A DNA stretch of 18,907 nt. It comes from an uncultured Bdellovibrionales bacterium. Its GTDB lineage: Bacteria > Bdellovibrionota_C > UBA2361 > CAZKXU01. The notes below the pieces were generated by a model. The model was not told where the DNA came from. It searched no databases and saw only the letters and a list, made by a program, of their open reading frames with translations. Below, one piece after another: positions 3,139 to 18,907 of this stretch (position 1 is the first letter of the stretch; each line of letters begins with the position of its first letter). The translations under genes were made by a program, and so were the position numbers. The stretch lies in contig CAZKXU010000070.1 of the NCBI GenBank assembly GCA_964556665.1, positions 1 to 18,907 of the forward strand, written 5' to 3'.

Positions 3139-3198
3139 ATTTTGCTAAGCAGTATGCCAGAAGCTTTGACCTCTGAATATACTGAGAAAACTCTATAT

Positions 3199-3312
3199 AG
3201 ACCTTATGACGCACCCCTCCAAGAAGTAAACTAATAATCGTAGGTTGCTTGTTGTTCCAATGAATAACAAGCCGAGCTACATTTACTAATGGAGGAATGC
3301 GTCATAAGGTCT
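3199..3312 (-). repeat. 114-bp nested inverted-repeat element / long RNA hairpin (22-bp arms AGACCTTATGACGCACCCCTCC ... GGAGGAATGCGTCATAAGGTCT) between small secreted gene stop and kup start
   Basis: Arms 3199-3220 and 3291-3312 are reverse complements at 20 of 22 positions. The two non-matching positions are C:A on the plus strand but G:U wobbles on the minus-strand transcript, giving a continuous 22-bp RNA stem in the transcribed orientation. An inner 7-bp hairpin GCTTGTT...AACAAGC lies at 3246-3271. The right arm overlaps the stop codon of the 3311 gene by 2 nt. Confidence 0.7.
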
Positions 3313-3703
3313 AGAGCACAGTAAGTTCCACTGTTCCTGATCCTGTATCAACTGTTAGTCCAGATAGACCAGGCTCAAGTGTGCAGGTGTGCGGAGCAGG
3401 GCAGATTAGGTTGCCATTGATCATAACAAAAAAATCTTTCCCTAAGAAAAAGATAGTAACTACGAAGCTTTCGCTGATTAATCCAGCATATGCGGGGCTT
3501 GCGTTAGTTACAGTCATATCGATGCTAGTTACACCACTTAAGCCTCCTCCTCCTGATCCAAGGCTGCGTCCACCGCTGCTTTGTGCAAAGACATTTGCTT
3601 GGGAGGATAAATAGTATGCGGTGAAAAAAAGCATTGAAAAGAGAGCCACTAATCTCTTTGTGATGATGCGAGGTCTTGAAGCTCTTGGAAGAAATGGAAG
3701 CAT
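3311..3703 (-). CDS. Hypothetical small secreted protein, Gly/Ser-rich N-terminal region after the signal peptide
   Basis: 130-aa ORF. It has a signal-peptide-like N-terminus (...LVALFSMLFFTAYYLSSQANVFA|QSSGG), followed by the low-complexity stretch GGRSLGSGGGGLSG and a C-terminal segment rich in predicted beta strands. I recognise no homology. It is divergent from the 3814 gene across an AT-rich spacer. Confidence 0.45.
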   Translation of the reverse strand: MLPFLPRASRPRIITKRLVALFSMLFFTAYYLSSQANVFAQSSGGRSLGSGGGGLSGVTSIDMTVTNASPAYAGLISESFVVTIFFLGKDFFVMINGNLICPAPHTCTLEPGLSGLTVDTGSGTVELTVL

Positions 3704-10719: not shown

Positions 10720-10750
10720 ATGGTATAGTGAGTTCTTAAAATATTAGTCC

Positions 10751-10825
10751 CTGGGAACGCGGGCTTCCAGTCCGCAAACGAAATTGCAGGCACTAAGTAG
10801 CGAGCTAGAAGCTCGCGGTCCCAGT
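10751..10825. repeat. Copy 2 of the ~75-nt palindromic repeat element
   Basis: It has the same length (75 nt) and the same termini CTGGGAaCGCGG...CGCGGTCCCAG, with one A:G mismatch in the outer stem. Inner hairpins are GCGGGCt-tcc-aGtCCGC and GCGAGC-tagaa-GCTCGC. It lies in the 134-bp spacer between the SPFH gene and queA. Confidence 0.85.
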
Positions 10826-15004: not shown

Positions 15005-15928
15005 ATGGAACTAATCTCTAAAAAATTAAACTTCGATTTTATAGGCAATTGCTGGAAGGGGATCTCAATTTCCTTAGCCCTATTAGTAATGAGCTTTTAT
15101 ATCTGGTTCGCAAAAGGTGAATCAAAATACGGCATCGATTTTAAGGGTGGACACGAGCTTGTAGTAAAAATTACGGGTGCTCCTGGTAGTGAAAAGATTC
15201 GAGAGATGTTAGTGCAGTCCGGAGTTGATGATATTATTGTGCAGTCTTTTGAAATTGGAAGTGATGAATATTCTATTCGCTTAAGCGTAAACGCCGGAGA
15301 TAGTAAGACGGTGCGTGAAAAAATTGATGGGGGTCTCAAAAAGGCTTTTGATGCTAACTATCAAGGGGTAATCAAGAGCGACTTCGTCGGCCCTACTATA
15401 GGAGAAGAGCTAAGAACTAGAGCTTTGTATGCCTGTCTTTTTGCCTTAATAGGAATTCTTATTTATGTTGCCTACCGTTTCGAAATGGCCTTTGCGCTAG
15501 GTGCTGTAGTGGCTCTATTCCATGACGTAATCGTGGCGATGGGTGTGTACCTGATGTGTGGGCATACTATTAATGTTGGCACTGTAGCTGCTGCGCTTAC
15601 TATAGTGGGCTATTCGGTCAACGACACCATTGTCATCTTTGATCGAGTACGGGAGGAGATCTTAAAACATGATAAATTTGATCTAGCTGCTTTGATGAAC
15701 GAGAGTATTAATGCGACTTTGTCACGCACTATTATCACAAGCATGCTCACGATTTTTTCAGTATTAGCGCTTCTAATTTTTGGCGGCGGAGCAATAGCTG
15801 ATCTAAGTGTTTACCTCCTAGCTGGTATGGTGGCAGGATGCTACTCCACCATTTTTATCGCCTCTCCGGTTGCGTTATGGTGGAATAAGATCAGAAGTCC
15901 TGAGATTGCGACGGCAGCACGAGCGTAG
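15005..15928 (+). CDS. secF: Protein translocase subunit SecF
   Basis: 307 aa from ATG 15005 (MELISKKLNFDFIG...). The ORF track begins at an upstream in-frame ATG at 14900, which overlaps secD. The start is inferred here at the first ATG after the secD stop. The C-terminal region (SVNDTIVIFDRVRE, membrane bundle) is typical of SecF. Confidence 0.88.
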   Translation: MELISKKLNFDFIGNCWKGISISLALLVMSFYIWFAKGESKYGIDFKGGHELVVKITGAPGSEKIREMLVQSGVDDIIVQSFEIGSDEYSIRLSVNAGDSKTVREKIDGGLKKAFDANYQGVIKSDFVGPTIGEELRTRALYACLFALIGILIYVAYRFEMAFALGAVVALFHDVIVAMGVYLMCGHTINVGTVAAALTIVGYSVNDTIVIFDRVREEILKHDKFDLAALMNESINATLSRTIITSMLTIFSVLALLIFGGGAIADLSVYLLAGMVAGCYSTIFIASPVALWWNKIRSPEIATAARA

Positions 15929-16137
15929 AATTGCGCTCAGTAGATGAGATACTTTGAAATCTATTGATGCAGATCTGCTTTCTCGCTCCGGAGTTTATGA
16001 AAATGCCGGCTAGTGGTCAGACCATATAATATTTCGTGACATTAATAGGCTGAAATCATTCATATTATCTGAGTAATATCAAATTGCTAGACACTGCTAC
16101 AAATTTCACTAGAACAAGCTATGAAATGTTTGACAAG

Positions 16138-16146
16138 TGCTATAAT
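16138..16146 (+). promoter_or_regulatory. Extended -10 promoter element TGcTATAAT upstream of the AAA+ ATPase gene
   Basis: TGCTATAAT at 16138-16146 matches the extended -10 consensus TGnTATAAT, 20 bp upstream of the GTG start. A perfect TTGACA (16130-16135) sits only 5 nt upstream, too close to be its -35. No good -35 lies at 17±1 spacing, so the call rests on the extended -10. Confidence 0.4.
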
Positions 16147-16165
16147 TTACGATAAAGAGTAATAA

Positions 16166-17317
16166 GTGATTTTTAAACGAAAATTCATAAATACTTTACT
16201 GAGTAGGCTCAAGGAGCCCGCTCCTTTAATTCAGGCAATACTAGGTCCACGCCAAGTTGGAAAAACTACGGCGATTCGACAACTGTTAGCCGATATTCAG
16301 ATCCCATTTCATTACTGCTCAGCCGATCTCTCTATTTCATTACCCAGCAGTTGGATAATAGAACAGTGGCAAGAAGCTCTCTTAAAGGGAGAGGGCTCAC
16401 TCTTAGTCATTGATGAAATTCAGAAAATTAGCAACTGGTCTGAGCTCCTAAAGAAACTTTGGGATGATAGTATTTCAAATAAAAGAATAAAGGTGATCAT
16501 TTTAGGTTCCAGCTCATTAAAAATACAAAAGGGACTTACAGAGAGTCTAACTGGAAGGTTTGAACTGATAAGAGTTTTTCACTGGAGCTTCTCAGAATAC
16601 AAAGAGGCATTTGGCTGTGATCTAAACAGCTATCTCCAGTATGGTGGCTACCCAGGATCATTCGAGTATATAAATGATTATTCACGGTGGCACTCTTACA
16701 TTAAGGATTCAGTAATTGAGACAGTAATTGGCCAAGATATATTGAGCTTAACTTCAGTTAGTAATCCAGCTCTATTTCGTCAGGCCTTCGAAATCTTATC
16801 GTCATATCCAGCACAAGAAATAAGCTATAATAAGCTGCTGGGCCAACTTCAGGATCGAGGTAACACAGATTTAGTGAAAAAGTATATTGAATTATATGAA
16901 GGAGCTTTTCTATTTAGAGCATTAGAAAAGTATAGCAACAAAGCTACCCTAAGAAAGAGCTCTACTCCAAAGATTCTGCCTCTCTGTCCATGTCTAGCAA
17001 CAGTACATCAAGGTAAAGAGGCTTTAGCTGACAATGAATTTAGAGGACGATTATTTGAGCTAGCTGTTGGCGCAGATCTAAATAGGTTACAAGGCGAGCT
17101 TTACTACTGGAGAGAGGGAAGTAATGAGGTAGATTACATCTATAAGCTTGGCAAGACAGTTTGGTCGATTGAGGTTAAATCAGGGCGGAAAAAGAGTGTA
17201 CGGGGCTTAGAAAAGTTTACTGATAAATTTCCCAAAGCGCGGATGGTGATCGTTAATTCGGATAATTATGAAAGTTTTTCTGCTGATCCTGAAAACTTTC
17301 TTGAGCGCCTGAGATAA
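16166..17317 (+). CDS. AAA+ superfamily ATPase with C-terminal DUF4143 (PD-(D/E)xK nuclease-like) domain (COG1373-type)
   Basis: 383 aa from a GTG start (AAGAG RBS upstream). Walker A is GPRQVGKTT; Walker B is LLVIDEIQ. The C-terminal ...EVDYIYKLGKTVWSIEVKSG fits a D...E-x-K restriction-endonuclease-like motif characteristic of DUF4143. The gene is visibly more AT-rich than the upstream operon. Confidence 0.8.
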   Translation: MIFKRKFINTLLSRLKEPAPLIQAILGPRQVGKTTAIRQLLADIQIPFHYCSADLSISLPSSWIIEQWQEALLKGEGSLLVIDEIQKISNWSELLKKLWDDSISNKRIKVIILGSSSLKIQKGLTESLTGRFELIRVFHWSFSEYKEAFGCDLNSYLQYGGYPGSFEYINDYSRWHSYIKDSVIETVIGQDILSLTSVSNPALFRQAFEILSSYPAQEISYNKLLGQLQDRGNTDLVKKYIELYEGAFLFRALEKYSNKATLRKSSTPKILPLCPCLATVHQGKEALADNEFRGRLFELAVGADLNRLQGELYYWREGSNEVDYIYKLGKTVWSIEVKSGRKKSVRGLEKFTDKFPKARMVIVNSDNYESFSADPENFLERLR

Positions 17318-17380
17318 ATCTTAGAGAGCGTAAAATTATTACCAGTTATTCAGTCCTTGCACTGAAAACTAAGTTTCCTA

Positions 17381-17433
17381 CTGGGACCGCGGGCTTCCAG
17401 CCCGCTTGATCGAGGAATTTGCCAAGACATAGT
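17381..17433. repeat. Copy 3 (truncated) of the palindromic repeat element: 5' arm + hairpin A + central segment only
   Basis: CTGGGACCGCGGGCTTCCAGCCCGC (17381-17405) matches the 5' half of copies 1 and 2. The following GAATTTGCCA matches the central GAATTGGTTGCCA / GAAATTGCAGGCA. The 3' terminal arm is absent. It lies 64 bp downstream of the ATPase gene stop. Confidence 0.7.
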
Positions 17434-17436
17434 TGA

Positions 17437-17478
17437 CCCCAATAAATTGTCCCCAATAAATTGTCCCCAATAAATTGT
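17437..17478. repeat. Tandem direct repeat, 3 x 14 bp (CCCCAATAAATTGT)
   Basis: Three perfect head-to-tail copies lie at 17437-17450, 17451-17464 and 17465-17478, immediately after the truncated palindromic element and before a long AT-rich spacer. Confidence 0.9.
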
Positions 17479-17607
17479 CTCACTGACATTGCGAACCTCC
17501 TACTAAAAATTGTAGATTTGAAATCAAATAAGTTGGTGACTAAAAACTCAATTTATATAGAATCTTAGCGCCAAGCATTAAGCCAGTTAGCGTGCTATTA
17601 TTGCCTT

Positions 17608-17632
17608 AAAATATGCTTTCAAAGCATATTTT
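17608..17632. repeat. 25-bp perfect palindrome AAAATATGCTTT-C-AAAGCATATTTT (imperfectly extendable to ~35 bp)
   Basis: The 12-bp arms are exact reverse complements around a central C. The stem is AT-rich and followed by TCTTAAG. It could be an operator-type protein-binding site or a weak terminator hairpin. Confidence 0.8.
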
Positions 17633-17758
17633 TCTTAAGAACTCTTAGATATTGGCAACAAGATTTGACCTTATTCCCTGAAATTATTAATATTTTCTAC
17701 TGTTTTGAAATCAGCTTAACTAGAATGACCATTAGCAATGTCTCTGTGAGAATTTTTT

Positions 17759-17782
17759 TGGGAATTTTATGGGGAATTTTAT
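17759..17782. repeat. Tandem direct repeat, 2 x 12 bp (TGGGAATTTTAT GGGGAATTTTAT)
   Basis: Two adjacent near-identical 12-mers (11/12) lie about 115 bp upstream of the 228-aa orphan gene start. Confidence 0.8.
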
Positions 17783-17895
17783 GAGGCTCGCAAGGGTCCC
17801 GTTTAATTTTGATGCTTATTAGAAACTGTTGACTATAAATAATTAGTTATGGGAGATCGTTTGAAATAATCGCTTCCCCTAAGCTTTGTCCCTCT

Positions 17896-18582
17896 ATGGC
17901 GAAATTTACAGCAAGATATGAGATCGTGGCGACAAAGAGTATAGTTGCCTCAGAACTGGCTAGAATGCAAAAGGCATGCTTTGATGAAGAAATACTACAA
18001 TGCTATAAGGACAACAATGAAGAGCAATTATATTGGGAGCAGTTTGACTGTCTCAAGAACAAGGTAAAGGGATACCGGACTTTCAATAAGATAATTAGTT
18101 TGGGGCATTCCGATGTAAAAAGTTTTGCAAAAAAGCTAACGGAAAAGCTGACGCAGTTATTCAATACAATTGGTGCCACTCACTTAATTATAATCTCTGA
18201 TTTAAAAAATGATTTTTTTGGAAATAGAGATAATAAGTTCAAACCATTAAAACAGGCGTATAATAAACTTGAAAAAATTGTTGGTGACAAAACATTTAAA
18301 GAGGCCTTTTCTGTCGATATAGATGATTTAAAAGACTTCATAGAAATTATCTTTTGGATAACGCGTTGCGATCCAAGCGTGCCTGGTCTTTACCTATTTG
18401 ACGATGGAGAGCAAATTCAAATTAGATTGTGCAAATATGGAAACATACATTTGATACAATATAAAAAAGTTGTTTTGACAGAGGGCAAATTGAAAGACTT
18501 GGGTTGGACAATTCTTAAAAAAAAGTGTTTTGACAACTTTACTAGTACCGGTAGGATTGAAGGAAGGCAGCTAAAAGTATAA
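17896..18582 (+). CDS. Hypothetical protein (228 aa), orphan, AT-rich, Lys-rich, no recognisable motifs
   Basis: The long ORF sits in an AT-rich region. No convincing SD is present (CCCTCT upstream). No signal peptide or TM segment is apparent. Codon composition is unlike the neighbouring sec operon. Confidence 0.5.
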   Translation: MAKFTARYEIVATKSIVASELARMQKACFDEEILQCYKDNNEEQLYWEQFDCLKNKVKGYRTFNKIISLGHSDVKSFAKKLTEKLTQLFNTIGATHLIIISDLKNDFFGNRDNKFKPLKQAYNKLEKIVGDKTFKEAFSVDIDDLKDFIEIIFWITRCDPSVPGLYLFDDGEQIQIRLCKYGNIHLIQYKKVVLTEGKLKDLGWTILKKKCFDNFTSTGRIEGRQLKV

Positions 18583-18659
18583 TATTTTCTCTCACCTTTC
18601 CCGAAGTCTCTGTGAAAAATTTATGTTGTGTTTCTTAGTTGCTCCGCCAGCCGTTTCAG

Positions 18660-18907
18660 TTAGTTCCTAGACTTATGTGTTATCCCCTTTCCAAATACCT
18701 CAAATTCTTCCAAAGTAGCAGTCGCATATATTTCTTCAAAATCACTACCTACGGATGCACGCTCACGGAACTTTTTAAAAGCGTGTGCAGCACTCTTACT
18801 GATAGTTAGACATCCACAACCGTCTCCAATATCCGCACAAACCCCAAGCTCAGATGTATCCGTCCTCTCCCACCCAGGTGTCGATTTGCAATAAATTGAA
18901 CAGCGGT
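18660..18907 (-). CDS. Partial CDS (C-terminal ~82 codons; start beyond window end), hypothetical
   Basis: On the minus strand, an open frame runs from the window edge to a TAA at 18660-18662 (…CADIGDGCGCLTISKSAAHAFKKFRERASVGSDFEEIYATATLEEFEVFGKGITHKSRN*). It is convergent with the 228-aa gene. The ORF track omits it because no start codon is inside the window. Confidence 0.3.
   Translation of the reverse strand, partial: RCSIYCKSTPGWERTDTSELGVCADIGDGCGCLTISKSAAHAFKKFRERASVGSDFEEIYATATLEEFEVFGKGITHKSRN

Follow-up and report, generated by a model that had tools for sequence, protein, structure and literature searches.

A tandem array of three exact 14-mers is the outer left end of a ~350-bp imperfect palindrome, possibly a MITE-like fold-back element, in an uncultured Bdellovibrionales bacterium

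We have analysed a stretch of 18,907 nucleotides of DNA from an uncultured Bdellovibrionales bacterium (contig CAZKXU010000070.1; the whole stretch is referred to here as the window), and in particular an array of three tandem 14-mers located in the spacer between an ATPase gene and a gene for a 228-aa protein. We observed that this array is the outer left end of an imperfect palindrome of ~350 bp, AT-rich and non-coding, which extends from 17437 to 17786. An earlier note on this DNA, which took the array for iterons or an operator, had overlooked an inverted and diverged partner array at 17751-17786. As an account of the whole structure we tentatively favour a fold-back element resembling a MITE (a miniature transposable element with inverted repeats), or the relic of one, at a repetitive extragenic palindromic (REP) site; on this view a transposase once bound its sub-repeats, and slippage has resized those on the left.

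The left array consists of three exact copies of CCCCAATAAATTGT on the plus strand, head to tail at 17437-17450, 17451-17464 and 17465-17478, with a partial fourth unit on their 5' side that reads TTGA in place of TTGT. Tandem Repeats Finder reported the same array, with the partial unit included, as its top-scoring one in the window (17433-17479; period 14, 3.4 copies, 96% matches, score 87), so that the three perfect 14-mers of the earlier note are confirmed both by reading of the sequence and by program. The note's remark that such exact repeats are unlikely to arise by chance was also borne out: with the base composition of the window, the chance expectation for 28 consecutive self-matches at lag 14 is only 4.9e-13, and for this reason we regard the left array as a real duplication. 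There is no further exact copy of the 14-mer elsewhere in the window.

The partner of this array came to light in a repeat search that was confined to 15900-18907 and used a shorter seed. The search revealed an inverted repeat of 32 nt, 78% complementary, between 17464-17495 and 17732-17763, and Tandem Repeats Finder listed a second array at 17750-17783 (period 12, 2.8 copies). By the latter program, by alignment of the arms and by the motif census given below, the right-arm array comprises three diverged 12-mers, inverted with respect to the left units, at 17751-17786 on the minus strand: CCTCATAAAATT, CCCCATAAAATT and CCCAAAAAAATT. Each array is continued inward by a segment that the inverted repeat and the alignment identify in both arms, namely CTCACTGACATTGCGAA on the plus strand at 17479-17495 and, paired with it in inverted orientation, CTCACAGAGACATTGCTAA on the minus strand at 17732-17750. 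Hence the left arm reads CCCCAATAAATTGT three times and then CTCACTGACATTGCGAA, and the right arm (17732-17786), on the minus strand, reads CCTCATAAAATT CCCCATAAAATT CCCAAAAAAATT CTCACAGAGACATTGCTAA. The architecture common to both is three tandem motif units followed by the same inner segment of 17-19 nt. The consensus per arm is 3x CCCCA(A)TAAA(A)TT(GT) and then the inner segment CTCAC..GACATTGC.AA; in short form, an arm is CCCCAATAAATT repeated two or three times plus CTCACNGACATTGC.

The likeness of the 2 arms was well above that of the controls. When 17442-17495 was aligned, locally and with gaps allowed, to the reverse complement of 17732-17782, 42 of 54 columns were identical and the score was 42, a value that was reached in none of 5000 shuffles and that compares with 21 for the best match elsewhere on the reverse strand of the window. 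A control alignment that used a single unit scored 27, against a shuffle maximum of 24. The motif CC[CT]CA{1,2}TA{3,4}TT has 5 matches in the window, all of them within the two arms and in opposite orientation between the arms; among the other loci that we fetched (~780 kb scanned in all) it was absent from every one except L001, a contig of the same locus that is described below.

Between the arms lies an AT-rich, non-coding interior (17496-17731, not assigned to either strand), which half-to-half alignment and folding indicate to be partly symmetric; that is, the left half of the element aligns with the reverse complement of the right half further inward than the arms. The repeat search also detected a perfect palindrome in this interior, AAAATATGCTTT-c-AAAGCATATTTT, at 17608-17632 (12-nt arms, 100% complementary, 1 nt between them; likewise without strand). 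The centre of this 25-bp palindrome, at 17620, is ~8 nt off the midpoint of the element at 17611.5. Folded as single-stranded DNA, a stretch of 376 nt gave -42.8 kcal/mol (z = -3.1). The longest open frame of the element is 71 codons, and a search with this frame, made for spurious open reading frames (ORFs) in other copies, returned one unrelated repetitive protein only. No Rfam family matched the region at gathering or E-value thresholds. One further candidate, a direct repeat of 29 nt (76%) that places 17728-17756 and 18594-18622 on the two sides of the 228-aa gene, was rejected as being at chance level, since the window has many similar two-copy families.

We compared the window with independent assemblies and observed that the left array is the only site that varies. 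One other contig encodes the 228-aa protein: L001 (ENA ERZ3430527; 1614 bp, 2.5x coverage), which covers 17383-18855 of the window. Over 1473 aligned columns the two are identical but for one mismatch and one 13-nt gap, both of which fall in the array, so that L001 has two imperfect units, CCCCAATAACTTGT and CCCCCAATAAATTGT, vs three exact ones in the window. The right-arm array is the same in both. No difference from the window was seen in either of two other independent contigs, L137 (1480 bp) and L138 (944 bp), which match it at 100% over 2424 bp, and this leaves the left array as the sole variable site in the ~3.9 kb that could be compared. Look-ups with Tgt and the SPFH protein for a third allele gave nothing but two contigs, one of 1.5 kb and one of 0.9 kb, that end short of the array. 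The earlier note had asked for repeat number to be compared across strains and had suspected a variable-number tandem repeat (VNTR), a suspicion that these comparisons uphold: head-to-tail units, two imperfect or three exact, between constant flanks. By its sequence, the left array behaves as a small VNTR that would be prone to slippage.

These observations bear on the age of the structure. Three units have been kept in both arms although these are only ~78% identical, and the perfect copies seen today are therefore younger than the tandem organisation. Because the left units are identical to each other and differ in number (two vs three) between assemblies, recent contraction and expansion by slippage are indicated on the left side. 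VNTRs, minisatellites and contingency loci are known classes of bacterial repeats, and the left array is like bacterial VNTR and contingency loci in its identical head-to-tail units and in a copy number that differs between near-identical strains; it is unlike them in that only two alleles are at hand, one of low coverage, and in that it is located outside any coding region and any mapped promoter.

Bacterial MITEs are described as intergenic elements of up to ~400 bp with terminal inverted repeats, no transposase gene and a stable stem-loop (PMC3184786). The element studied here is 350 bp long and has no transposase gene, its longest frame of 71 codons being without a real homologue; it has terminal inverted repeats (the 42 of 54 columns noted above) and a stable fold-back (z = -3.1). 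It thus resembles such MITEs as the Correia elements and Nezha (PMC3184786) in being small, AT-rich and intergenic, in its stem-loop and terminal inverted repeats and in having no gene for a transposase, and its location at a REP site is a further likeness. The process that we envisage is as follows. A miniature non-autonomous transposable element would have landed in a REP/REPIN site between the ATPase gene and the 228-aa gene; the three sub-repeats of each arm would be present or past binding sites for the transposase of the parent element; and slipped-strand mispairing would have homogenised the left units and produced the two-vs-three difference. Mobility, binding of a transposase and insertion into a REP doublet are all inferred.

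Several transposase-binding sub-repeats per end occur in Tn7 (the TnsB sites), in Mu (L1-L3 and R1-R3) and in IS21 (multiple terminal repeats). Sites of this kind usually measure ~19-22 bp; a strict head-to-tail order is rare among them, and they are not known to be identical. The present element has in common with such multi-site ends the several direct copies of one short motif per end and the mutual inversion of the ends; it differs from them in that no transposase is present at this locus, and binding of one is here a putative reading only. The ends of Sleeping Beauty, according to PMC5224488, are likewise of the inverted repeat/direct repeat type, with direct sub-repeats within inverted ends. 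As a set of putative protein-binding sites, three per arm and inverted, the pattern fits either multi-site transposon ends or a symmetric operator. Two other kinds of recombination site were considered and set aside: arm-type sites of an integrase, in view of the lack of an adjoining integrase gene and of units that are identical and contiguous, and an integron attC site, in view of the length of 350 bp and the orientation of the core-like GTTGACC. The length of attC sites is 57-141 bp.

The REP site to which we refer is marked by a solitary GC-rich hairpin of REP type that the repeat search located on the plus strand at 17378-17405, 27 nt to the left of the array: CTACTGGGACC-GCGGGC-TTCCA-GCCCGC. 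It shares its family with two inverted doublets of 87 nt, at 32-118 and 10739-10825, and the five units thereby present in the window conform to what is understood by REP/REPIN sequences, that is, short GC-rich palindromic extragenic units, mostly in inverted doublets. REP singlets are thought to arise from doublets destroyed by decay, insertion or deletion (PMC3116915), and insertion of insertion sequences (ISs) into REP sequences is widespread (PMC3184786). A possible remnant of a second REP unit, GGGACC-ctt-GCGAGC-cTC, abuts the right arm on the minus strand at 17783-17800; it gives the best reverse-strand match to 3 of the 5 REP arms, and the evidence for it is weak. That a REP doublet had its second arm replaced by the array can be offered as a suggestion only.

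The hairpins are like published REP/REPIN units (PMC3116915, PMC3337134) in being extragenic and GC-rich, of ~25 nt, and arranged as inverted doublets with a spacer or as a singlet. They are unlike them in that the window has no RAYT gene and that the core motif is found in at least 120 unrelated, mostly GC-rich metagenome contigs, which is broader than one lineage-specific family. These contigs (L011-L130) were matched by a degenerate 25-mer that represents the core, CTGGGA-N-C GCGGGC nTCnn GCCCGC, and they carry the units singly, as inverted pairs 20-100 nt apart or as tandem arrays (L024, L059, L078). One core spread so widely, this genome with its GC of 43% included, would not usually be expected of a REP family specific to a lineage. 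Translation of the reverse strand gives A-G-x-x-P-A-L-P. A full-text literature search with the sequence strings found no paper. We also observed that independent short-read contigs end at REP units or just ahead of them: L001 begins inside one (17383), and L138 stops at 10721, 18 nt before the doublet at 10739. Such breaks fit the presence of multiple copies of the units in the genome. L001 reads through the 350-bp palindromic element without a break.

A number of observations weigh against a MITE-like element. There is no target-site duplication, in that no direct repeat of 2-9 bp fits the boundaries together with good terminal complementarity. The exact dimer of the 14-bp unit had 0 matches in the GTDB representative genomes, in the metagenome collection and in IMG/VR, and other parts of the element had 0 matches in IMG/VR; in sum, the searches made found no second copy, no parent element and no transposase, in collections that did not contain the rest of this genome. 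Absence of a target-site duplication, of a second copy and of a parent IS with matching ends sets the element apart from the bacterial MITEs with which it was compared above, as do arms of 55-59 nt made of three tandem sub-repeats. The presumed REP remnant, although at the place expected of a second unit, is not significant relative to shuffles (p = 0.09 to 0.85), and the spacer after the solitary REP hairpin has only a marginal likeness to the spacers of the two doublets (p = 0.014 and 0.23). Finally, the polymorphism of the array amounts to two alleles only, one of which comes from a single contig of 2.5x coverage.

With no match to its exact dimer in the collections named above, the array does not appear as the common dispersed microsatellite that the earlier note had set against its binding-site reading, and that reading gains no support from this either. 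A degenerate form of the dimer detected, in IMG/VR, only a giant-virus metagenome-assembled genome (MAG), whose repeat of a 15-mer, TTCCCCATTAAAGTT, is unrelated and seems to be coding, and we discarded this as a chance match. In that MAG, long arrays of TTCCCCATTAAAGTT or its complement are present at contig ends (L135, 11040-11115; L136, 13680-13775).

A neutral private minisatellite, inert throughout, is an unlikely explanation, though the strongest of the alternatives. It supposes that a 14-bp segment was duplicated and expanded by slippage in an unconstrained spacer, and that the inverted partner stems from an old local inverted duplication. Three identical units speak for a recent event, and the assemblies vary at the array while being identical elsewhere; none of the collections searched contained it, nor does it occur beside homologues of either neighbouring gene. 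A short direct repeat, TTGAC and TTGTC, brackets the 14-bp unit. Also, arrays of this class (which we define by a period of 8-30, at least 2.8 copies and at least 95% matches) numbered 2 in the 737 kb of bacterial and metagenomic DNA that we examined, the left array being one of them; they are uncommon, yet a few per genome are to be expected. What a minisatellite does not readily accommodate is the recurrence of the three-unit layout and of the inner segment, inverted, ~250 bp away and at ~78% identity, none of which is predicted by recent slippage alone.

We consider it improbable that the element is a symmetric operator or other regulatory region, at which a DNA-binding protein would occupy the two triplets, and perhaps the central palindrome, so as to control the 228-aa gene or read-through from the ATPase gene, with copy number tuning expression in the manner of a contingency locus. 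The two inverted motif triplets, the perfect palindrome between them and the variable copy number are what such a region might be expected to have. The arrays themselves create inward-directed matches to the sigma-70 consensus, one on the plus strand (17433-17462, TTGACC-18-TAAATT) and one on the minus strand (17793-17764, TTGCGA-18-TAAAAT), and a further match lies upstream of the 228-aa gene at 17665-17693, there being 9 such sites in all vs 2.4 expected; however, matches to a sigma-70 consensus are not evidence of function. Also, the last 3 kb of the window contain no gene for a DNA-binding protein, 418 bp separate the left array from the point where the 228-aa gene starts, and upstream of homologues of that gene the spacers are short (88-316 bp) and free of tandem repeats.

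Even less probable, in our judgement, is a working site of protein-DNA assembly made up of the two triplets and the palindrome and maintained by the host or by an island, whether for replication or partition of a small integrated element or for recognition by the ATPase as a PDC-S01 ATPase-nuclease, with repeat number acting as a switch. The ATPase gene in question (16166-17317, plus strand) encodes AAA_14 and DUF4143 domains, and the PADLOC candidate for phage defence that it matches is PDC-S01 (E = 6e-142). The closest relatives of the ATPase are ~61% identical, the named ones being from Rhodoferax and Rhodocyclaceae. The homologues whose loci we inspected (L131-L134) stand alone among unrelated housekeeping genes in varied contexts, in one case ~1.2 kb downstream from the gene for an integrase of phage type, and no tandem repeat was found downstream of any of those examined. 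The C-terminal region of the ATPase has an EVD...EVK pattern that resembles a putative PD-(D/E)xK nuclease motif.

The iteron reading, in which the array would belong to the replication origin of an integrative element or integrated plasmid and be bound by an initiator (the 228-aa protein or the ATPase), with unwinding of the AT-rich DNA, is largely refuted, and we give it very little credence. Direct repeats do adjoin AT-rich DNA here, as they do in the iteron origins of theta plasmids (RK2, F, P1, R6K, pSC101), and three iterons suffice in some plasmids, among them pSC101 (PMC4980987). Iterons, however, are 17-22 bp, are bound cooperatively by Rep through winged-helix domains, are helically phased, and are accompanied by DnaA boxes and an unwinding element (PMC4980987). 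The units described here measure 14 bp in the left arm and 12 bp in the right one and follow each other strictly without a gap, and a 14-bp period corresponds to 1.33 helical turns, or a rotation of 120 degrees per unit. Two repeat sets around an AT-rich core resemble the origins of some satellites or islands, a point that we count in favour of an origin. The DnaA box TTATCCACA, with up to 1 mismatch allowed, occurred 3 times in the window vs 4.6 expected, in no cluster, and not at all in 17300-17900.

The earlier note was right that the array is followed by AT-rich DNA and then by a gene: 417 bp (17479-17895) of GC 0.33 precede the 228-aa ORF. That composition is ordinary for this region, since other spacers range from 0.30 to 0.39 and the value for the 228-aa gene is 0.34, so that no unwinding element stands out by its AT content. 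Nor does the rest of the layout that the note compared to an iteron plasmid or integrative element hold with respect to unit length, phasing, DnaA boxes, a gene for a winged-helix Rep protein or replicon context. The 578-bp spacer had no blastn match in 72,556 plasmids or 50,697 phages, tblastn with the 228-aa protein found no relative in the same plasmids and phages, the homologues of the ATPase stand alone without such a structure downstream, and the neighbours are chromosomal housekeeping genes. A repeat number that differs between near-identical strains is a further departure from the iteron origins.

As to the 228-aa gene (17896-18582, plus strand), the note had called it an orphan, and this proved mistaken: it belongs to a conserved family, with at least 143 homologues at 50-68% identity, the named ones being from Bacteroidota (Chitinophaga, Terrimonas, Chryseobacterium and 'Bacteroidia'). 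The neighbourhoods of the homologues differ, and their upstream spacers contain neither a tandem repeat nor the 10-mer CAATAAATTG. The note's proposal that the protein might be of Rep, initiator or winged-helix type found no support in predicted structure or in profiles. An AlphaFold model built from 54 sequences was confident (pLDDT 90.6, pTM 0.86); Foldseek comparison of this model with the PDB and with viral models gave nothing with E < 0.01 and no winged-helix or Rep match; and searches with the protein against Pfam, NCBIfam, PHROGs, PADLOC and PDB-sequence profiles gave no match.

That the third unit, or the differences in L001, might be errors of the assembler or of low coverage has the slightest probability of all the alternatives, since, despite the 2.5x coverage of L001, the 42-bp array is shorter than a read (of a length that we assume), no error relative to the window occurs in more than 1400 bp of the rest of L001 or anywhere in L137 and L138, and the diverged partner array is identical in both assemblies.

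The window is chromosomal. Its genes, by Pfam, encode a periplasmic binding protein, Kup, a sulfatase, pyruvate carboxylase (pyc), an SPFH protein, QueA, Tgt, YajC, SecD and SecF, followed by the ATPase gene and the 228-aa ORF; it contains no tRNA gene and no Rfam family. The nearest relatives of its Tgt are 64-66% identical, the named ones being from MAGs of Deltaproteobacteria and Oligoflexia. No close genome was found among the GTDB representatives, where a probe with SecF for syntenic loci gave only distant Veillonellaceae and Selenomonas. GC falls from 0.44 between kup and secF to 0.39 in the ATPase gene and 0.34 in the 228-aa gene, as would fit the acquisition of a small region downstream of secF.

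Two other parts of the window should be mentioned. Between kup and a 130-aa ORF without a Pfam match there is an inverted repeat, 3198-3221 / 3290-3313, with arms of 24 nt that are 92% complementary and 68 nt apart; one arm resembles a segment internal to kup, 1747-1772 (CTTATGACGCA...). At the other end, identity between L001 and the window stops at 18855, and what follows is wholly different (18856-18907 of the window vs 1461-1614 of L001). The break falls within a cysteine-rich ORF on the minus strand, which runs off the contig end and is open in both versions; the C-terminal ~65 residues are the same and the N-terminal parts different. This is either the breakpoint of a recombination within a variable gene or the chimeric end of a contig. 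A fourth copy of CAATAAATTG, at 18889-18898, was given no weight, in that it sits in this 52-nt tail, in which L001 is different, and shuffles contain the 10-mer no less often.

In summary, the finding as it stands is a single, unconserved, non-coding locus, and a false lead has been removed: the array is not an iteron origin and the 228-aa gene is not an orphan. For exact arrays in general, it is advisable to look for an inverted partner before calling operators or iterons. Should further copies of the element be present in the rest of the genome, they would define a MITE family with ends of three sub-repeats in a poorly sampled lineage, and could lead to the parent transposon.
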